From an uncultured delta proteobacterium (GTDB taxonomy: Bacteria; Desulfobacterota; Desulfobacteria; Desulfobacterales; JAHEIW01), in NCBI GenBank assembly GCA_963706575.1, contig CAVPNL010000003.1, positions 352,001 to 416,000 on the forward strand: a stretch of 64,000 nucleotides of DNA, given 5' to 3'. This document shows positions 1-63,127 of the stretch, one piece after another. Under the pieces are notes generated by a model that was not told the DNA's origin, did no database searches, and saw only the letters and a list, made by a program, of their open reading frames with translations. How positions within the stretch are numbered: the stretch's first letter is position 1; each line of letters starts with the position of its first letter. The position numbers and the translations under genes were made by a program.

Positions 1-1100
1 GTAGCGGCCACGCCAAGAACATCTCCCACGCCAACCTACAAACCGTCCAGTTGCGTGATGTCAACAACCGCTTTGGATGCTCTGGCGACAGCATCGATGG
101 GTGGGATTGAGTTTAAGGGAACCCCGCCTACCCCCATACCCATATTGGCATGAATGGGTATGTTGGACTGCGCTGTACAGGCCTTTAGGAAAGTAACAAC
201 TCGCGCTACATTCCAGGCACAGGAATCATTCGTGGTTGTATTGATAACCGGGCCAAAAATGGTAACGCCTGCTTTCTCAGCCAGTTTGACCTGCTCGTGT
301 GGAAACAATCCTGCTAAACGAATATCTTCATAGTGGAGATCTCCATGCATTCCTAAGACAAACTCGCCAGACATCCCCATTTCAATACACATATCGGGGT
401 ATTTCTTTTTAAGGATTTCAACCGCTTTAAGGGTTGCCAAAAAATCAGGATCTCCGGCTGCCCCGGTGGTGTCGAAATCGATTCCATCCGCCCCGGATTC
501 ATAGAGCTCACTGGCCACAAAAACCATATCCGCGACCGCATACTCAATCGCTGCTTCACTGGCCGCCCTGGCCTCATCAATTTTTCCCGCGGACATCAGT
601 TCAGATGAATTCGGAGCGGGACCGTCCGGTTGGCTATAGATGCCCAGATTTGGCATCGCCCCATACATAACGGGGACCGTTGTGACCAACAATGCCTGCT
701 CCAATATGGATCTTTCATAGCCGACAATGGGTTTGATTGCCTTGAAACTGTAATCGATATGGCCCAATTCAACGGTGTCGGCACCCAGTGCCTTCTCATA
801 CAGCTGAAGCATTTGGGTCCTGTCGATGGGAAGAAGATTGCGTTGTATTTCGTTACAGGTTGTATCGTAAGTAAAAATCACCTCGTTGCCTGGCTCCACA
901 TGTCCCGGTGGTGAGGACGAGCTGTAGATATCAAAAAGATGATCCAATTCATCCTGGGTGAGCGGATCGATTTTTCCGATGTCTGCGGCATCCTTAGTCC
1001 CCTCTTCGAGATCTTGCTTCAGTTCAGCCTCGGAAAGCGCTAATAAGGAACCATCTCCCATTCGGGTTCGGATTTTCTTATTCGCCATGATCAGCTCCAT
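1..1100 (-). CDS. mtbB: Dimethylamine:corrinoid methyltransferase (MtbB family), pyrrolysine-containing; runs off the window edge
   Basis: MtbB motifs RMGDG, ELGHIDYSFK, YGAMPNLG, FDTTGAAGD, MGMGVGG. The ORF-track stop at 36-38 is TAG, and the frame continues DGL*VGVGDVLGVAA, matching MtbB DGI-O-IGVGDPLG. The real start is probably ATG 1088 (GGAG upstream). Confidence 0.92.
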
Positions 1101-2136: not shown

Positions 2137-3291
2137 TTACAGCTCGATCAAATCCCTTGATGTCTTTGAAAGAATCTCTGCGCCCGTCTCGGTCATGAGA
2201 ACATCGTCTATGATTCTGACCCCGACCCGTTCTTCGCTTATGTATACCGGTGGTTCGATGGAAACAACCATTCCGGGCTCGAGAGTATACTTGCTGTCCG
2301 CGAACAGGTGATTGTTCTCACCCCATGAGGGCGGATAACCCGGTCCAATCCCATAGCCGGTGGTATGCAGGCGATATGAATCCAATCCCGCATCTGCGAT
2401 AACCTTCTTGGCGACTTCATGGGGCTTTACCATGGGGACGCCTGGTTTCATCTCCGCTATACAAAGATCACAGGCCTCACGAACCACTTTATAGACCTCT
2501 TTAACACGGGGCCTGGCCTTTCCCAGGCACAGTTGTCTGCCGATGGTGCAGTGGTAGCGTTTGTAGCAACCGGAATATTCAATGTTGATATCGTCTCCCT
2601 GTTTGAGTTTGCGTTCTGTCGGAAACCCATGCGGATAAACAATTCGCTCACCGGACACAAAATTCATGGGGCTGGCCGATGCGTCGCTGCCCAGAGCCAT
2701 GAGGGTTCGATGCATCTCTCCAGCGATTTCGAGTTCGGTTTTTCCTTCGGCTAAGGTGTCCAGCCCGGTTTGAAATGCAGCATCTGCAATATCTGAAGCC
2801 TTGCGAATATAGGCAATCTCCGCCGCTGATTTGGCAAGCTTCAAATCTTCAATCAAAAAAGGCACTTCTTTGACGGAACAATCCTTGAGAAGGTCTTTGA
2901 GCTTTATATAATCATGGGGGCCCAGGTAGTAGTAAGGAACCTCGAAACCGATGCGGTGCTTAAAATAGCCCTTTTCTTCCATGATGGTTTTGACCACGTC
3001 GATGGGATCTTCCGGTTCGCGCCCACCCCAGCCGCGTATGTCTTCCGCCAGGCTTTGCTCGGTGTACTCCAACACCTCCGCCAGTCGCATCGTCACAGTG
3101 AGCGGACCCGGTTCGCGCGTGAAAAAGAGGCATTGAAACTCCTGGAAGCTTTTGGCACGGGTTCCGATCAACCAGTGTATGCTCTGGGGAGCAATAACAA
3201 GGAGGAGATCCAGTCCTTCTTTATCCATAGCCTCTCTGACCCGCCGCTGCCGCGTTTCAAATTCCTCCATTTCAAATTCATGCTTTGACAT
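2137..3291 (-). CDS. M24 (pita-bread fold) hydrolase, ectoine hydrolase EutD/DoeA- or creatinase-like
   Basis: Creatinase_N domain plus KSAAEI, IEYSGCYKRYH, GYGIGPGYPPSWGE, LEPGMVVSIEP. Several canonical metal ligands are replaced, as in EutD/creatinase. Confidence 0.8.
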   Translation of the reverse strand: MSKHEFEMEEFETRQRRVREAMDKEGLDLLLVIAPQSIHWLIGTRAKSFQEFQCLFFTREPGPLTVTMRLAEVLEYTEQSLAEDIRGWGGREPEDPIDVVKTIMEEKGYFKHRIGFEVPYYYLGPHDYIKLKDLLKDCSVKEVPFLIEDLKLAKSAAEIAYIRKASDIADAAFQTGLDTLAEGKTELEIAGEMHRTLMALGSDASASPMNFVSGERIVYPHGFPTERKLKQGDDINIEYSGCYKRYHCTIGRQLCLGKARPRVKEVYKVVREACDLCIAEMKPGVPMVKPHEVAKKVIADAGLDSYRLHTTGYGIGPGYPPSWGENNHLFADSKYTLEPGMVVSIEPPVYISEERVGVRIIDDVLMTETGAEILSKTSRDLIEL

Positions 3292-25719: not shown

Positions 25720-28287
25720 CTAATTACTTTGCCGCAACCAGTGCACGCTATTGGATCGGCATTCAGGGCAGATCCGTTCACGGTTCACACTGAAAATACT
25801 GTCCCAATGATGCCCGCAGCGCATGCACGCAAATTCGGTCTTTTTTTCTTCGTTGGCAGGCTTCGGGTTGCGAGGACGCGGTACGCGTGCTTTTGCCAGA
25901 AGTTCTCGCGTCAGTTCCAATTCTTCCGGGGTCACCATCTCACGTTTTTTCTCAACAGCCTGCATAATGGTTTGCCAGCGGCCGCCCTCGGCAGCGGAAC
26001 ACCATTCCAACAATAGCCGGTCAGCGCGGACACCGGATTTTTCCAGGCCATCCCACAGACCGTCCATCCGCCGCACCGTGCTGCGGTTCGCGTCAATGTA
26101 ATGGCAGTCAACGTAATGGCAACCGGACACCAAGACGACCGGCGCACCCTTTTGAAATGAATACCACACGAATTCCGGATTCACCCGCCCCGAGCACATC
26201 GTGCGGATAATTCGCGCATTGGGTGGATATTCCAAACGGCTCACGCCGGCCGTATCTGCCCCGGCGTATGAGCACCATTTGCAGGCAAAAGTGACGATTT
26301 TTTTCTGAGGGTCTTCTTCCAGCATGGCGTCGATCTGAGAATATATTGCCTGGTCTGAAGAGTGCCGCATTTCAATTGCCCCAAATTTGCACTCGGCAGC
26401 GCAAGTCCCGCAACCGGCGCAAGCCGCACTGATGATCTGAGGGGGTTGCTTTTTTTGCCAGGTGATTGCACCAAACGGGCAAACATGAGCACATTGTCCG
26501 CATTTTGTACAGGCCGCTTCATACACACTGGCCGTAATCGCTTCCACCGCAAATTGATCTTTACGCAACAGAATCGAAGCGTGTATGCTCGCAGCGCTGG
26601 CCTGGGTAACACTCTCACGAACGTCCTTGGGACTTTCGGCAGCGCCGGCAATGAATACCCCTTTGGTGGGCGTCTCTACCGGACGCAGTTTTGCATGCGC
26701 TTCCTTTAAGAAACCGTTCGGTGATTTAGAGATACTCACCATTTGCCGAATGGTTTCTGTTTCAATCGCCGGCGTTGCACCCACTGCCAGAACCAGCATA
26801 TCGAATTCGTGTTTCTCAAGGCGCTTTTTGATGGTATTTTCAACGGTAACCATCAGGCTGCGGGTTTGGGGATCTTCTTGAACATCACCCGGCAAGCCAC
26901 GGACATAGCGCACCCCGCTGCCCCGCGTTCGCATCAGAAGCTCTTCAAATCCCTTACCGTAAGCCCGCAGGTCAATGTAAAAAACGGTAATTTCCGTATC
27001 GGGGTAGTTGTCCTTAAGGTACTGTGCGCCTTTGATGGTGTTCATACAACAAATATTGGAACAATAGGGATTGCCCCGTTTGGGATCCTGGGTCCGCGAT
27101 CCAACACATTGGATAAATCCGATCCGATGGGGCCTGGCCTGGTCACTGGGTCGACCAAGGTGTCCCATCAAAGGCCCGCCGGTGGAAATCAGCCGTTCAA
27201 ATTCGATGCTGGTAACCACATTGACAAAACGGGTGTAGCCGTATTCATCCAGCGACGTGGGGTCATACACGTCCATGCCGGTGGCCACAATGATCGCGCC
27301 GACCTCAACTTCGAGAAGTTCATCCTCCTGGTCAAAATCAATACATTTCTTATCGCAAACTTCGAGACACTTCCCGCAAGCGATCGGATTGGCACCAAGA
27401 CAGTCTTGGGCCGAGATTAGATAGGCGGAAGGGACAGCCTGCGGAAAAGGAATATATATCGCCCGACGACTGCTCAAACCCATCTGGAATTCGTCGGCAA
27501 TAACGACCGGGCAAACAGTTGCGCAATCACCGCAGGAGACGCAGGCCTGCTCGTCAACGTAGCGGGCTTTTTTGCGAATGCGGGCCTTGAAGTTGCCCAC
27601 ATATCCGGTTACATCTTCTAATTGAGAATGGGTCAGCAGTTCAATTTTGGGATGTCGACCGACATCCATCATCTTGGGGCCCAAAATTCAGATACTGCAC
27701 TCGATGTCAGGATAGACTTTGTCAAGCTGCGCCATAATACCGCCAATCGATGGCGTTTTTTCGACCAGATAGACCTGATGTCCCGCATCGGCCAAATCCA
27801 ATGCTGCCTGCATACCGGCCACCCCACCGCCGACGACCAGGGCGGCATCCTTGACCGGAATTTGCTCTTCATCCTGCGGGTAAAGCCATCTGGCTCGCGC
27901 TACGGCCACTTTAACAATGTCTTTGGCCTTTACGGTGGCTTCGTCGGGGTCCGAGGTCACCCAGGAACAGTGTTCACGGATGTTGGCCATCTCCAACAGG
28001 TATTGGTTAAGCCCTGCGTCCTGAATACATTGCCGGAATATCGGCTCATATGACGATGGTGAACACGATGCAACCACGATCCGGTTGAGCCGATGCTCGA
28101 AAATCGCTCGTTGAATCTCCTGCTGCCCCGGATCCGCACAGGTATATTTATTGCGAATCGATAAAACAACACCCGACAGGTCCTCGGCAAACTTGCGCAC
28201 CTCCTCGGTGTCCAGAAAACCAGCAATATTTGAACCGCAATCGCACACGAAAACGCCGATACGTAAATCTTCTTTTGCCAACGTCAA
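25720..28287 (-). CDS. hdrA: Selenocysteine-containing HdrA-like flavoprotein fused to MvhD and a C-terminal Zn-ribbon (855 aa)
   Basis: ORFs 27688..28287 and 25720..27684 are one frame joined by TGA 27688-27690 (DKVYPDIECSI-U-ILGPKMMDVGRHP). Also GVFVCDCG, NIREHCSW, GGGVAG, QCVGSR, YCSNICC, ferredoxin motifs, MvhD CKWCSY/MCSGR/GCHYVDCHY, and a CMRC..CPEC tail. Confidence 0.92.
27643..27688 (-). promoter_or_regulatory. Bacterial SECIS element
   Basis: After the UGA: lower stem AAUUUUGGG/CCCAAAAUU and apical stem GGAUGUC-GGUC-GACAUCC. The G-initiated loop starts 27 nt after the UGA. Confidence 0.85.
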
Positions 28288-56333: not shown

Positions 56334-58925
56334 TCAAACAACAATGTTAACCAGCTTACCCTTGACATAAATGACCTTTTTTATGGCCCGGCCATCGACA
56401 AATTTCTTTAGGCGTTCATCCGCAAGCGCAATCTGCTTGATGGTCTCTTCATCGGTATCGGTCGCCACTGAAAACTTGCTTCTCAGCTTGCCGTTGACCT
56501 GAATCACAATTAACAGCTCATCCTTCTCGAGGGCCTCTTTCAGATAAGACGGCCACGGCGCCAGCAAAATACTGGATGAATTGCCCAGCGCTTCCCACAG
56601 CTGTTCGGCAAAATGCGGCACGATCGGCGACAGCAGCAATGTCAGAGTTTCCATGGCAAATCGCATCACCGCGACCTGTTGCGGATTGCTTGTGGCTTCT
56701 TCAATGGCGGACATCGTGTTAAACAGCTCCATAATAGCACTAATGGCCGTATTAAAATGGTAGCGGTTCTCGATGTCCCGGGTCACCTTCATTATGGTTT
56801 GATGCGTTTTTTTGTAAAGATCCCTTTCGGCACCCTCCAGAGCGTCGGAGCTGCCGTCGAATGCAGCCACATCCTTTACCCGATTCATCCACTCGCTTGT
56901 CAGGCGCCACACTCTGTTTAAAAAACGGAAACCGCCTTCAACTCCCTGCTCGCTCCACTCCAGATCGCGTTCAGGCGGTGCGGCAAACAGGCAAAAAAAC
57001 CGCGTGGTGTCGGCGCCGTATTTTTCAAGAAGCGTATTGGGGTCAATGACATTCTTTTTCGATTTGGACATTTTTTCTACGCGCCCCAGCGTCACCGGCG
57101 CATCACAATGCACACAAAAACGCTTTCCGTCCACAACCGTTACTTCATCGGGCAGCAGATTCCCGTGTTTGGGGCATGAAGCCGTTTCTTTGCACACCAT
57201 CCCCTGGGTTAACAAACGCGTGAAAGGTTCTTTGAACTTGACCAAACCCTGATCGTTTAAGACGCGGGTATAATAGCGTGAATAGAGCAGGTGCAAAATG
57301 GCATGCTCAACACCGCCGATATACTGGTCAACCGGCATCCAGTAATCTACCGCCGATGGGTCAAACATGCCTTTATCAAAGTGCGGGCTGCAATATCGGT
57401 CAAAATACCAGGATGATTCAACAAATGTATCCATGGTGTCGGTCTCCCGACGTGCTGACGAATGGCCGCATTCCGGACACTGCACCTTTACAAACGAATC
57501 CAGCTGATGCAGCGGTGACCTGCCGCCTTCCAACATTTCGACATCTTCCGGCAAGACGACCGGAAGGTCTGATTCCGGAACCGGTACAATTCCACAGCTA
57601 TCGCAATGGATAATGGGAATTGGCGCGCCCCAGTATCTTTGCCTCGAAATGCCCCAATCCCGTAACCGATAGCTAACCTCTGCTTGTCCCAGGTTATTTT
57701 TTTCCAGGAACGCAGCAATCGCCTGCATTGCTTTTTTATTTTCCATTCCGTTGAAATCACCGGAATTAACCATGATACCCGGCCCCACATAAGCCTCCAC
57801 AAGACCCTCAGACTCCAAATTTTCATCTTCCGACGTAACAACGACGATGATGTCCAGGCCATATTTCTTGGCAAAATCAAAATCGCGCTGATCATGGGCC
57901 GGCACAGCCATTACAGCACCTGTCCCGTATTCCATGAGGGCAAAGTTTGCCGTATAAATGGGGATGCGTTTGCCGCTCAAGGGATTAATACAGTGAGCAC
58001 CGAGAAATACACCTTCCTTCTCATATTCCTCCACAGCCTTGTCCGATCGATCCAGCATCGACATCTTATCGACAAACGCCGTCACTTGCTTTTCCTGAGG
58101 CGTCGCCCGTGAAAGCTGGAGGGTCAGTGGATGTTCCGGAGCCAGGCACATAAAGGTTGCACCGAAAACCGTATCATGACGGGTCGTAAATACCGGAATA
58201 ACGATATCCTGGTTTTCAACCGGAAAACGAATCTCAGCCCCGACGCTTTTTCCAATCCAGTTTTTCTGCATGGTGGTTACCTTTTCCGGCCATCCAGGCA
58301 GCTGATCGGAATAGGCCAGCAGATCACCGGCATAATCTGTAGTGCGGAAAAACCATTGCCACAGTTTTTTCTGGCGAACCTGCTGGCTGCAGCGCCAGCA
58401 TAAACCGGATTCAACCTGTTCATTAGCCAGGACCGTCTGGCAGGATTCGCACCAGTTCACAAACGATTCCTTGCGATAGGCCATTCCGTTTTCGTACATT
58501 TTCAAAAACAGCCACTGTTCCCAACGATAGTATTCAGGCCGGCAGGTTGCGATTTCTCTGCCCCAATCATAGGAGAATCCCAGCTGCTTGAGCTGAGCGC
58601 GCATGGCATCGATGTTGGCATAGGTCCATTTCGCTGGATGGGTTTTGTTGGCAATGGCGGCATTTTCTGCCGGCATGCCAAAGGCATCCCAGCCCATGGG
58701 GTGCAAGACATTGAAACCGCGCATTCGCTTGTATCTGGCCACCACATCACCAATGGTATAGTTGCGCACATGTCCCATATGAATCTTGCCGGAAGGATAC
58801 GGAAACATCTCCAGAAGATAATATTTTTCCCTGTCGGGATCTTCTTTGACTTTGAACAGCCCGTTCGACTCCCAGTAAGCCTGCCATTTGGGTTCAATTT
58901 TTCTGGGATCGTATTTCTCGTCCAT
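56334..58925 (-). CDS. leuS: Leucine--tRNA ligase
   Basis: [31 protein letters not shown]. Confidence 0.99.
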
Positions 58926-58980
58926 TACCGAAACCCGCCTTTTTCCTATTTGGTTGATCGTTTATGAATGCTTGACTTTC

Positions 58981-59008
58981 TAAAACCCATCTCAAAAAAT
59001 GGGTTCTA
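58981..59008. mobile_element. Minimal MITE remnant (fused terminal repeats)
   Basis: TAAAACCCATCTCAAAAA-ATGGGTTCTA. Confidence 0.65.
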
Positions 59009-59328
59009 AATAAAACATCCCCGTGATCCATCGTGGGACCCCAGGGAAAACTGTTCCCAACGTTTTTCATGCCACAAAATGATAACAATAGCAAGGCTGT
59101 CAAGTAACTCTACTGATAGGAGATGGGACAGCGAACGGGCACGTCTCATGAAACATGTCTATCAGGAAACAAAAAGGAACACGAGGGCGCATACAGGATT
59201 AGGCAACGTTCCTGTGCTTCGAACCTGTTGTTGTGTTCGTTCTTGTTATCGCGTATTTTCCGGCTTGGATGTCAACCCGGTGACTTGACTGCCGCGATTT
59301 TTGGGCCGAGAAATCGTTTGACTTGTTA

Positions 59329-59358
59329 TTGACAATTTCATATTCAGGCGCATACACT
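59329..59358 (+). promoter_or_regulatory. Candidate sigma70 promoter for rne
   Basis: TTGACA-18 bp-TACACT. Confidence 0.55.
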
Positions 59359-59434
59359 TAAGAATTAAAAATCGGGCGAAGTTAACGAATTCCATCAACA
59401 GGTCGTTTATGAAGGCATTAGGGGTTAAGACTTT

Positions 59435-60931
59435 ATGAGCACAAAAATCCTTATTAATGCAATTGCTCCGGAAGAATGCCGGGTCGCTATAGTCAAAGCA
59501 AAAAATCTGGAAGAATTTTATATTGAAAGCGCTTCGCGGGAAATCACCCAGGGCAATATATACAAAGGAACGATTTCGCGGATCGAGCCAAGCCTTCAGG
59601 CGGTTTTTGTAGACTACGGTGCCGAACGACACGGCTTTTTACAGCGCCATGAAATCCACAGCGACTATTTTCAGGAAAGTGAAGGGGGCGTCCATAAAAT
59701 AGAAAAAATCGTCAAACGTGGGCAGGAAGTTATGGTGCAGGTCACCAAAGAGCCGTTTATGAAAAAGGGCGCCATGCTGACCACCTATATCTCTTTGGCA
59801 GGTCGGCATCTGGTGTTGATGCCCGGCAGTGACAAACGGGGGATTTCTCGAAAGATTGAGGATGAAGATGAACGCAGCCGTATCAAGGATTTGATGGCTA
59901 AATTAAAATCCCCGGAAGGGTTCGGCCTAATCGTCCGGACCGTTGGTGTAAACTGCACTAAAACCCTTTTAGCCCGTGATTTAAGGTATCTGCTGCGTCT
60001 TTGGAAAAACATTAAAAAAAGCGTAATGAAGGATCCGGCGCCGGCACTTCTTTATCGCGAAAGGAACCTGGTTCTAAGGTCGATCCGTGATTATTTTACG
60101 CCAGAGGTAAATGAAATTCTAATCGATGATCCTGCTGTATTCCATGAAGTAAAGGATTTCATCAAAATTATTTCCCGCAAACACAATAAAATCGTCAAAC
60201 TATATAAAGGCGCCAAGCCGATTTTCACTCAATTTGGAATCGAAAACCAGATTGCGACCATATTTGAAAGCCGGGTAACTCTAAAATCAGGGGGCTCCAT
60301 TGTCATCGAACAAACCGAAGCCCTGGTGTCTGTTGATGTAAATTCCGGCAAATCCACTCATGAAAGATCGATTGAAAAAACAGCATTTCTTACCAACCTG
60401 GAAGCGGCCGAAGAAGCTGCCCGACAGCTTCGGCTGAGAGACCTGGGTGGCCTCATTGTCATTGATTTCATTGACATGAAAGAGCCAAAGCACCGTTCAG
60501 ATGTTGAGCGCCGGCTGCGAAGCGTTGCCAACGAGGACAAAGCCAAGACAAAAGTGGGGAAAATCTCAAGATTCGGATTGCTGGAAATGTCCCGCCAACG
60601 GATCCGTCCTTCGATCGAATTCGGCAGTTATCAACCCTGTCACTACTGCCAGGGTAAAGGACTAATTGCATCCACAGAGACCCTGGCGGTCGGTTTTCTC
60701 AGAAAACTCAGTTTAGAAACCCTTAAACCGGGAATTGCCTTTGTCAAAGTGGTGGTGCCGCTAAATGTCGCCGACTATCTGTTAAACAAAAAACGCAAAG
60801 AAATTGCCGAACTGGAAGAGCGGCGTAACCTGAATGTCAAAATTGAAGGCGACCAATCAATGATACCGGGAGACAGCCAGATTTTATATAACGATAAAAA
60901 GAATTCTCAGGGGTTAAAAGTTCGATATTGA
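59435..60931 (+). CDS. rne: Ribonuclease E/G family (catalytic domain only)
   Basis: GNIYKG, AVFVDYG, VDVNSG, LRDLGGLIVIDFIDM, C..CQGKG Zn-link; no long C-terminal scaffold. Confidence 0.93.
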   Translation: MSTKILINAIAPEECRVAIVKAKNLEEFYIESASREITQGNIYKGTISRIEPSLQAVFVDYGAERHGFLQRHEIHSDYFQESEGGVHKIEKIVKRGQEVMVQVTKEPFMKKGAMLTTYISLAGRHLVLMPGSDKRGISRKIEDEDERSRIKDLMAKLKSPEGFGLIVRTVGVNCTKTLLARDLRYLLRLWKNIKKSVMKDPAPALLYRERNLVLRSIRDYFTPEVNEILIDDPAVFHEVKDFIKIISRKHNKIVKLYKGAKPIFTQFGIENQIATIFESRVTLKSGGSIVIEQTEALVSVDVNSGKSTHERSIEKTAFLTNLEAAEEAARQLRLRDLGGLIVIDFIDMKEPKHRSDVERRLRSVANEDKAKTKVGKISRFGLLEMSRQRIRPSIEFGSYQPCHYCQGKGLIASTETLAVGFLRKLSLETLKPGIAFVKVVVPLNVADYLLNKKRKEIAELEERRNLNVKIEGDQSMIPGDSQILYNDKKNSQGLKVRY

Positions 60932-61555: not shown

Positions 61556-63127
61556 TTGAAAAATTTTTCATGGAAACTGATTTTGGTTTTTGCGGTTATT
61601 GTTGCAGCCGTTGTTTATGTACTTCCGACACTTGAACCCGGTTTATGGCCGCACAAACAGATAAACCTGGGTCTTGATCTTCAAGGCGGAATGCACCTGG
61701 TACTGGAAGTCGACACTGCCAAAGCCGTGGAGGGCCAGGTTGAGCGCATCGCACAGGAAATCCGAGACCAGTTCAGAAAAGAGCGGCTTCGCAAAGTTTC
61801 CTTGAATCGCATTGATGGAAATAAAATATCCGTAACGGTTCAAGACCCGCAAATTCTCGAAAAATTTAATGCGCTTTTAAAAAAAGATTTTGATTTTTTG
61901 AAGCGCACCCCGCGGACGGAAGGCGGCACCTCAACCATAATTCTTGAGATACCTCAACTGGAAGCCGAAAATACGAAAAAACTGGCGGTCGATCAGGCGC
62001 TGGAAACGATCCGTAATCGCATCGACCAATTCGGCGTGGCAGAGCCAGATATCCGCCGCCAGGGAGAAAAGCGGATCCTTATTCAGCTGCCGGGTATCAA
62101 GGATCCGGAACGGGCCAAGGATTTGATCGGACGAACAGCGCTTTTAGAGTTCAAACTGGTAGATGACACCCTCGATGTCAACGCAGCAGTGAAAGGCAAT
62201 GTGCCGGCCGGCAGAGAAGTTCTCTATCGGGTAGAGGAGAATACGGACACCGGCAAAGTTACCAAATTGCCTTTTCTGCTGAAAAAGCGAACCCTTTTGA
62301 CCGGTGCCAATCTGACCAATGCACGCGTCGACTTCGACCAATTCAATATCCCTTTTGTGTCCATTAACTTTGATAAAAAAGGGGCGCGGGATTTTGAACG
62401 CATCACGGGCGATAATGTCAACAAGCGGCTGGCAATTGTTCTGGACGATACGGTTGCGTCAGCGCCGGTCATCCAGGAAAAGATTGCCGGCGGTCAGGCC
62501 CGCATTACCGGGGACTTCACGCTGGACGAAGCCAAAGATCTGGCCATCGTGCTGCGGGCGGGTGCTCTGCCGGCTCCGGTCAACATACTGGAAGAACGCA
62601 CCGTCGGTCCTTCCCTTGGGGCCGACTCCATCCGTAAGGGACTGATTTCCATGCTGATCGGGGGTGTTCTGGTCGTTTTATTTATGATCGTTTACTACAA
62701 AGGCGCCGGGATCATTGCCGATGTCGCCCTGATACTGAACATCATCCTGATTGCCGGCGGTCTGGCGGCTGCCAAAGCAACTTTAACACTGCCGGGAATT
62801 GCCGGTATCATCTTAACCATCGGCATGGCGGTAGATGCCAATGTGATCATTTTTGAACGAATCCGGGAAGAACTCGCGCTGGGACGAACCGCGCGTGCGG
62901 CAGTAGATGCCGGCTATAACCGCGCCACCCTGACGATTCTCGATGCCAACGTTACCACTCTAATTGCCGCGATTGTGCTTTTTCAATTCGGAACCGGCCC
63001 GGTTAAGGGCTTTGCCGTAACCCTGAGCCTGGGCGTCATTGCCAGTCTGTTCACAGCCCTGGTGCTCTCCCGCTTGATATTTGATTACATCCTGGGGGGA
63101 CGCAAGGTTAAAACACTCAGTATATGA
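61556..63127 (+). CDS. secD: Protein translocase subunit SecD
   Basis: LGLDLQGG, RNRIDQFGVAEP, LRAGALPAP, GMAVDANV. Confidence 0.98.
   Translation: MKNFSWKLILVFAVIVAAVVYVLPTLEPGLWPHKQINLGLDLQGGMHLVLEVDTAKAVEGQVERIAQEIRDQFRKERLRKVSLNRIDGNKISVTVQDPQILEKFNALLKKDFDFLKRTPRTEGGTSTIILEIPQLEAENTKKLAVDQALETIRNRIDQFGVAEPDIRRQGEKRILIQLPGIKDPERAKDLIGRTALLEFKLVDDTLDVNAAVKGNVPAGREVLYRVEENTDTGKVTKLPFLLKKRTLLTGANLTNARVDFDQFNIPFVSINFDKKGARDFERITGDNVNKRLAIVLDDTVASAPVIQEKIAGGQARITGDFTLDEAKDLAIVLRAGALPAPVNILEERTVGPSLGADSIRKGLISMLIGGVLVVLFMIVYYKGAGIIADVALILNIILIAGGLAAAKATLTLPGIAGIILTIGMAVDANVIIFERIREELALGRTARAAVDAGYNRATLTILDANVTTLIAAIVLFQFGTGPVKGFAVTLSLGVIASLFTALVLSRLIFDYILGGRKVKTLSI

Follow-up and report, generated by a model that had tools for sequence, protein, structure and literature searches.

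Results

An MtbB-family gene is probably read through at an in-frame UAG

The window analyzed here is a 64,000-nucleotide stretch (G000:C3:352001-416000) of a 5.67-Mb assembly in 25 contigs that is 91.8% complete and 6.4% contaminated. At its left edge, on the minus strand, lies part of an MtbB-family pyrrolysine methyltransferase gene (positions 1 to 1088). Upstream on the same strand are an EutA-like gene of the maleate-isomerase/Asp-Glu-racemase family (1164 to 1967) and an M24 (pita-bread) hydrolase gene of the ectoine-hydrolase type (2137 to 3291). The longest mtbB open reading frame begins at ATG 1100; the second ATG, at 1088, is probably the start, with a GGAG (1098 to 1095) six bases upstream. 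A start at 1088 gives a truncated form of 350 residues, which is the form found in the protein database.

Positions 36 to 38 read CTA on the forward strand; the minus strand accordingly has a TAG that shares the frame of the ORF from 1100 to 36. It is codon 355 counted from ATG 1100 and is the pyrrolysine site of the family. The frame reads ITQLDGL, the amber codon, and then VGVGDVLGVAA up to the window edge. The read-through part occupies minus-strand positions 1 to 35 and then C3:352000 down to 351694, remaining open for 113 codons to a TAA (C3:351696-351694) about 306 bases left of the window; this TAA overlaps the stop codon of a convergent GNAT gene. The initial annotation had recognized the amber codon of an MtbB gene and had expected about 110 residues outside the window. 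The frame does go on, but 11 of its codons are inside the window and about 102 beyond its left edge.

The similarity to MtbB persists past the window edge, which the initial annotation had proposed to check. The read-through product has 468 codons with one TAG, covers positions 3 to 462 of the 463 in PF09505 (634 bits), and scores 504.3 bits against TIGR02368, where the curated cut-off is 369.1. Its one in-frame UAG takes the O position of the conserved DG(L/I)-O-(V/I)G motif. TAG occupied this site in 82 of 82 homologous alignments and later in all 168 that span the codon; these came from 176 aligned pieces, eight of which do not span it, and this gene and near-duplicates are among them. Past the amber, five close relatives differ by silent and replacement changes of 4/1, 14/7, 15/8, 22/21, and 44/32, and by this measure the post-amber part is under purifying selection. 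The remark that gene callers truncate such genes was apt, as 119 of the 120 best database homologues are truncated, at 285 to 359 residues. Two full-length database proteins (P0045 and P0222) carry Gln at the pyrrolysine site and are probably gene calls made under a TAG=Gln code.

The pyrrolysine machinery is encoded on another contig

The pyl genes predicted to lie elsewhere in the genome are on contig C15. One tRNA-Pyl(CUA) at C15:118432-118505 (ARAGORN) is followed by pylSc, pylB, pylC, pylD, and pylSn, and each of the five proteins scores over its curated cut-off. The tetranucleotide correlation between C15 and C3 is 0.95, within the range of the other contigs. Furthermore, the C15 pyl block is 82 to 92% identical to that of two same-genus genomes, G005 and G014, and these two match the C3 region at about 91%. 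Therefore, C15 and C3 belong to the same organism. We regard it as almost certain that the mtbB UAG is read as pyrrolysine by the organism's own tRNA-Pyl and PylSc/PylSn. That UAG is instead a plain stop, leaving a pseudogene or a functional 350-residue truncation, is very improbable: UAG does terminate 759 of the 3296 long ORFs of this genome (23%), and mtbB is deleted in close relatives, but such a stop fits poorly with the TAG in 168 of 168 alignments, the purifying selection behind it, and the complete pyl set, and it would cost the structural model strand eight of its barrel and its C-terminal helices.

The proposal that the host is a sulfate reducer agrees with a dsrA over its cut-off and with the order Desulfobacterales. 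The genome also holds acetyl-CoA synthase, a pterin-type second methyltransferase gene beside a corrinoid gene, and the corrinoid and RamA genes that had been suggested as a check, namely, 11 corrinoid cap domains and 3 RamA/RACE-type activators. The rarity ascribed to pyrrolysine in Deltaproteobacteria does not extend to this lineage, in which 19 of 61 genomes searched have mtbB and 11 of 21 other same-genus genomes have pylB. One genome of the same order (G026) has twelve mtbB matches, eleven of them near full length, with one TAG each.

No corrinoid gene adjoins the window mtbB. The best MtbC candidate for it is on C15; this gene is frameshifted in the assembly and unbroken in related contigs, and it is the best match of the corrinoid gene that adjoins L095, a member of the same MtbB clade. 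A second mtbB, with its corrinoid gene behind it, precedes the pyl operon at C15:114430-116503 (L003:6430-8503), and each of the two has one extra base. The extra bases are absent from the related contigs listed (6 contigs of 3 runs at one place and 8 of 4 runs at the other), so these two frameshifts are probably assembly errors. C15 also carries an mttB (58716 to 60213) whose pyrrolysine site is a TAG (59213), with a frameshift upstream of that codon; a corrinoid gene follows. Elsewhere in the genome are three MtmB-family genes without any stop, at C12:17256, C4:159929, and C13:86217, and ten intact MttB-family genes without TAG.

A scan by coding potential listed 22 TAG candidates for additional Pyl genes and gave no credible new Pyl protein; it was insensitive, because it missed the window mtbB, though it recovered the C15 mtbB. 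Nor did a scan by hairpin of 5897 TAG-ended frames add a Pyl gene. A molybdopterin-oxidoreductase-like gene at C4:61100-62400 has a TAG in frame at 61913 with a frameshift behind it, and is absent from the hairpin-scan list; an error or a pseudogene is more likely here than pyrrolysine. Inside the window, an HdrA-like gene (25720 to 28287, minus strand) is split by an in-frame TGA (27690 to 27688) that is followed by a SECIS-like hairpin, and a tRNA-Sec lies at C3:141925. Scans for promoters and terminators did no better than chance. Parts of mtbB are covered by contigs of two RNA runs, mostly at less than 99% identity, and this does not show its expression.

A conserved hairpin lies behind the amber codon of bacterial mtbB

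We compared silent sites in 73 homologues of less than 85% DNA identity, drawn from 144 full-length genes. Of 289 silent sites, the six under the strongest constraint are all within codons 354 to 383. The strongest in the gene family is the UUG (Leu354; window positions 39 to 41, minus strand) directly 5' of the amber. TTG makes up 60 of 70 Leu codons there, against 13.8 expected, and occurs in 25 of 30 Bacillota; none of 9 archaea has it, their residue there being Val or Ile. The other five are GGA381 (71/73), CTG383 (68/73), TCG372, GGA376, and GGC375.

The 73 genes have as their standard consensus fold a single hairpin of 13 pairs, whose AGAY loop comes 80 bases after the U of UAG. In the window gene it comprises codons 377 to 387 (G000:C3:351940-351972, minus strand, 29 to 61 bases left of window base 1), from +66 to +98 of the amber, with 8 uninterrupted pairs and an AGAU tetraloop (-18.7 kcal/mol, z -2.3). 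It is a candidate bacterial pyrrolysine-insertion signal. Pairing holds in 92.4% of cells (72 rows); none of 500 shuffles reached this value, and slid controls gave 29 to 42%. Two-sided changes occur in 56 cells, compared with 19.8 in shuffles, and the number of pairs that have such a change (4) is not above shuffles. The pair between the third positions of codons 378 and 385 is formed in 56 of 73 genes against 28 expected, ranking first of 69,378 third-position pairs. Among 36 independent neighbor pairs on the protein tree, double changes kept pairing in 15 of 30 cases (7/14, 5/8, and 3/8), against 15% in controls.

An AG loop on at least five pairs is present in 66 of the 73 genes, with 7 failing, against a mean of 8.2 and a maximum of 16 in synonymous shuffles. 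Therefore, the amino acids do not explain the hairpin. In held-out Bacillota genes (n = 29, one already-used gene left out), it was found in 23 against 3.1 in shuffles, and the 378-385 pair formed in 24 against 11.5. Archaeal mtbB has it in 0 of 9 genes, all of one class (that of G705), despite nearly the same residues. The background in this genome is about 0.5% (35 of 7287 in-gene positions), and the hairpin follows 3 of 545 UAG stops, one of which is the window mtbB. Over the 100 bases after UAG, the folding energy is only mildly low (mean z -0.9, 45 genes), so the signal is local. Constraint outside the hairpin, at TCG372, GGC375, GGA376, and CAA388 (C3:351937-351987), is unexplained by the 13-pair stem; it may reflect a lower stem or pairing with the UUG before the amber.

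A similar hairpin occurs in pyrrolysine mttB genes

The Pyl-site mttB genes are unrelated to mtbB. Their most constrained silent site is the first loop base of an AGGN-loop hairpin at +74. The AG-loop hairpin is present in 28 of 39 Pyl genes, 11 failing, and in 0 of 63 non-Pyl homologues; for 38 Pyl genes, synonymous shuffles gave 0.9 against 27 observed. The mttB stem shows little two-sided change. The mttB on C15 has an 11-pair stem and an AGGG loop. Only 2 of 8 Bacillota Pyl-mttB genes have the hairpin, and both Desulfobacterales Pyl-mtmB genes compared lack an AG-loop hairpin at the mtbB-like distance.

The A and G of the hairpin loop are retained at sites that are silent or conserved. These patterns give an even chance, in our estimate, that a protein binds the hairpin and that this shifts the balance from termination toward pyrrolysine insertion. 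A somewhat doubtful but serious alternative is that the hairpin is real and has no readthrough role, serving instead to protect the untranslated rest of the mRNA after ribosomes have stopped at UAG, to block Rho, or to bind a regulator. Its position 80 bases away, outside the footprint of a ribosome at the codon, suits that alternative, as do the reports, in the available text of the sources, that PYLIS elements are not required (PMC9499178, PMC2933860) and that bacteria handle pyrrolysine by regulation and not by codon avoidance (PMC3941956). Against it, the strongest silent constraint is on the codon touching UAG, and an AG-loop hairpin recurs at a similar distance in the unrelated Pyl-mttB and in none of the 63 non-Pyl homologues.

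The window MtbB is a predicted TIM barrel of a distinct clade

The AlphaFold model of the read-through MtbB (mean pLDDT, 93.5) is a TIM barrel of eight strands, with residue 355 in the last strand (353 to 356). Its best structural matches are the barrels of methionine synthase, MtaA, and BHMT (Z scores of 18.7, 18.2, and 17.4). Neither MtmB nor MttB was among the fold-search matches listed, which is no evidence against kinship, and a sequence search of the PDB did not find an MtbB structure. In the accepted model for these methyltransferases, pyrrolysine faces the active site, and the amine is bound to it as an adduct.

Among 144 proteins placed in a tree, the window MtbB falls in a clade of 10 rows (SH-aLRT 100), apart from the mtbB genes of its own genus. 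The loop after barrel strand 1 (D79 to R94) has 16 residues in all 10 clade rows and 22 in all 23 archaeal-type rows. The 16-residue loop is also found in 100 of 127 other rows; residues within it are clade specific. The methanogen length occurs in 7 of 30 Bacillota MtbB proteins, so loop length varies among bacteria.

The clade is tied to ectoine-catabolism-like genes

The EutA-like gene lies 63 bases upstream of the longest mtbB ORF. It scores 176.5 bits against TIGR02990, below the cut-off of 318, and matches PDB maleate isomerases. The M24 hydrolase scores 148.4 bits against TIGR02993, below the DoeA/EutD cut-off of 613. It aligns with DoeA-like proteins, and its metal-ligand positions are unlike those of prolidases. 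The M24 gene, the EutA-like gene, and mtbB form a probable three-gene operon, with the M24 gene first. Between the first two genes lies a short intergenic repeat (window positions about 2020 to 2129) with 12 further matches in the genome and very high metagenome-contig depth.

Homologues of M24, EutA, DoeA, EutB, a U32-like protein, or a dehydrogenase flank mtbB at 9 of 10 clade loci, a count that represents about six independent lineages and used several query genes taken from clade loci. Eight have M24, EutA, DoeA, or EutB, and the ninth has the U32-like and dehydrogenase genes; the tenth locus begins inside mtbB. Such neighbors were at none of 129 other mtbB loci (124 others, 70 of them at least 8 kb, plus 5 of the sister clade). 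The five sister rows have pyl genes at three of their loci.

Three same-genus genomes that have pylB (G005, G014, and G015) carry the M24-EutA pair and no mtbB. Therefore, the pair does not need MtbB. In G005 and G014, the pair is at the same chromosomal site, and G005 retains the last ~25 bases of mtbB, which indicates that mtbB was lost there. A related cluster in G012 (C81; L197 and L207), with TRAP transporters and a Pyl-site MttB behind M24, adjoins pylSc-B-C; the G012 genome has no mtbB match. A search of 400 further genomes of the phylum at E 1e-90 gave no M24 orthologue, and viral contigs gave none either. Aerobic M24 relatives are on plasmids (four records, two examined), with Ehu or amino-acid transporters and dehydratase and deacetylase-like genes nearby; no annotated N-demethylase stood beside the M24 relatives in the two examined.

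The following assignments were considered and set aside. A creatinase role for M24 gained no support from its 22 PDB matches, none of which is a creatinase, and its metal-ligand positions differ from those of metal prolidase and DddP. A homarine pathway as a source of N-methylglutamate was dropped as unsupported; the hom genes described in the accessible portion of PMC13236597 (a flavin oxygenase pair, a peptidase, and an aldehyde dehydrogenase) were unmatched to the neighbors.

Dimethylamine use, as given in the initial annotation, is the activity presumed by default for the family; the neighbors and the loop of the clade are unlike those of methanogen MtbB. Because the clade is tied to ectoine-catabolism-like genes, dimethylamine is not assured as the substrate. 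Ectoine itself has no N-methyl group. We conclude that the neighbor cluster meets an N-methyl amine, and that the methyltransferase is accessory to it. Dimethylamine is the likeliest single compound, at a little under an even chance, and the chance of another secondary amine is about even.

It is moderately probable that the amine comes from the upstream EutD-like/EutA-like pathway, as released dimethylamine or as an N-methyl amino acid. The competing account, tenable though we hold it less likely, is an ordinary dimethylamine methyltransferase in a solute-catabolism island, with dimethylamine from the C15 Pyl-MttB or from outside. It draws on the passing score for the TIGR02368 equivalog, on dimethylamine as the family's described activity in the part of PMC2933860 available, on the Pyl-site mttB in the genome, on the neighbors that persist without mtbB in three relatives, and on the methanogen-length loop of the 7 of 30 Bacillota proteins. 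Against it stand the link to EutA/EutD-like genes across the clade (9 of 10 loci, compared with 0 of 129), a loop that is six residues shorter than in all 23 archaeal-type proteins and has clade-specific residues, and the up to 12 mtbB matches in one genome of the order. An amine from the upstream pathway is the source that we prefer.

Discussion

We propose the following scheme. The UAG of mtbB would be decoded as pyrrolysine by tRNA-Pyl with PylSc/PylSn, and the hairpin 80 bases downstream would favor readthrough over termination. MtbB would then demethylate a secondary N-methylamine and load the methyl on a corrinoid protein encoded elsewhere, and the methyl would move from the MtbC-like protein of C15 to the pterin-type second methyltransferase and into the Wood-Ljungdahl pathway. 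That the product is a secondary-amine:corrinoid methyltransferase feeding the Wood-Ljungdahl pathway of a sulfate reducer by this route is highly probable. The whole picture, with an intact pyrrolysine MtbB, a borrowed corrinoid protein, and hairpin-favored readthrough, we consider reasonably probable, reading as we do from sequence. A wider reading is tentative: Pyl codons may be marked by an AG(A/G)N-tetraloop hairpin 74 to 80 bases downstream in bacteria with dual-use UAG, with independent origins in mtbB and mttB and absence from amber-avoiding archaea, and be read by a putative factor, while the clade may demethylate an N-methyl compound of an undescribed ectoine-like pathway.

The core observation is known; pyrrolysine MtbB in Deltaproteobacteria, which the initial annotation also mentioned, has been in print since 2007. 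Worth following are the covarying, bacteria-biased hairpin and the neighbors of the clade, whose functions we infer. The ambiguity between Pyl and stop UAG is sharpest in bacteria, where UAG is a common stop (23% here). According to the text available of PMC9499178, which speaks for archaea, there is no known mRNA motif or factor by which a pyrrolysine UAG is told from a stop UAG. A hairpin defined to the base, which can be broken and repaired silently without changing the protein, makes the readthrough question directly testable. The hairpin could also mark bacterial Pyl genes for discovery and could raise amber-suppression yields. In addition, a Pyl clade tied to ectoine-like genes suggests that sediment sulfate reducers use pyrrolysine beyond the three methylamines.

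The window gene is like Methanosarcina MtbB (TIGR02368, PF09505) in its full-length match, its amber site, and its TIM-barrel model. It differs from archaeal MtbB in having about 47% identity and a loop after strand 1 that is six residues shorter, and it has Val at 361, where most bacterial members have Pro. Unlike the Methanosarcina gene, it is without an adjacent corrinoid gene and has ectoine-catabolism-like neighbors.

Also close are the deltaproteobacterial Pyl MtbB/MttB systems of the Olavius delta-1 symbiont (PMC1976440) and of sediment genomes (PMC8318568). As far as the accessible text of these papers goes, they share with this genome the split PylSc/PylSn, pylBCD, several mtbB genes, the coexistence of Sec and Pyl, and a proposed entry of the methyl into the Wood-Ljungdahl pathway. 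The portions seen of PMC1976440 describe a deltaproteobacterium with six mtbB genes, a full pyl set, and "no common RNA structures," and those of PMC8318568 describe a wider spread of pyrrolysine and the Wood-Ljungdahl route. Unlike here, neither mtbB subfamilies nor ectoine-hydrolase-like neighbors of mtbB are reported in those portions. In a literature search over a collection poor in subscription papers, none of the papers listed reported, in its title or the opening of its abstract, a bacteria-specific hairpin common to mtbB and mttB, and none treated mtbB subfamilies.

Ectoine and hydroxyectoine catabolism proceeds through eutABCDE, a pathway without a methyltransferase in the available part of PMC5924519. 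EutA-, EutB-, and EutD/DoeA-like genes are in the clusters of the clade, and the two in the window fall well short of the EutA and DoeA cut-offs.

The mtbB hairpin was already predicted by Rfam, as the second hairpin of PYLIS_2 (RF02509) has the same AGAc loop. The window gene scores 60.9 bits against that model (gathering cut-off, 36), which also scores coding-sequence likeness. Unlike in PYLIS_2, only the second (3') hairpin is supported by covariation here; bacteria retain it, and the archaeal genes tested lack it. The first (5') hairpin was absent from the standard fold of 73 genes and weak in the RIBOSUM fold, and silent-site constraint in its region (codons 356 to 369) never rose above z 4. 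The excerpted text of PMC3639795 predicts for mtbB a consensus structure, which may include this hairpin, and reports no structure in mttB, in contrast to the AG-loop hairpin in 28 of 39 Pyl-mttB genes here. Other partial sources describe PYLIS as not required and little conserved, and amber codons as avoided by archaea and not by bacteria (PMC9499178, PMC2933860, PMC3941956).

Bacterial SECIS elements are likewise hairpins within the coding sequence, 3' of a dual-use stop, with conserved loop bases. The mtbB hairpin is much farther from its codon than is bacterial SECIS, and it is not known to have a SelB-like partner. The SECIS-like hairpins of this same genome lie about 15 to 45 bases after UGA and have loops of 3 to 5 bases, while the mtbB hairpin spans +66 to +98 and carries a tetraloop.
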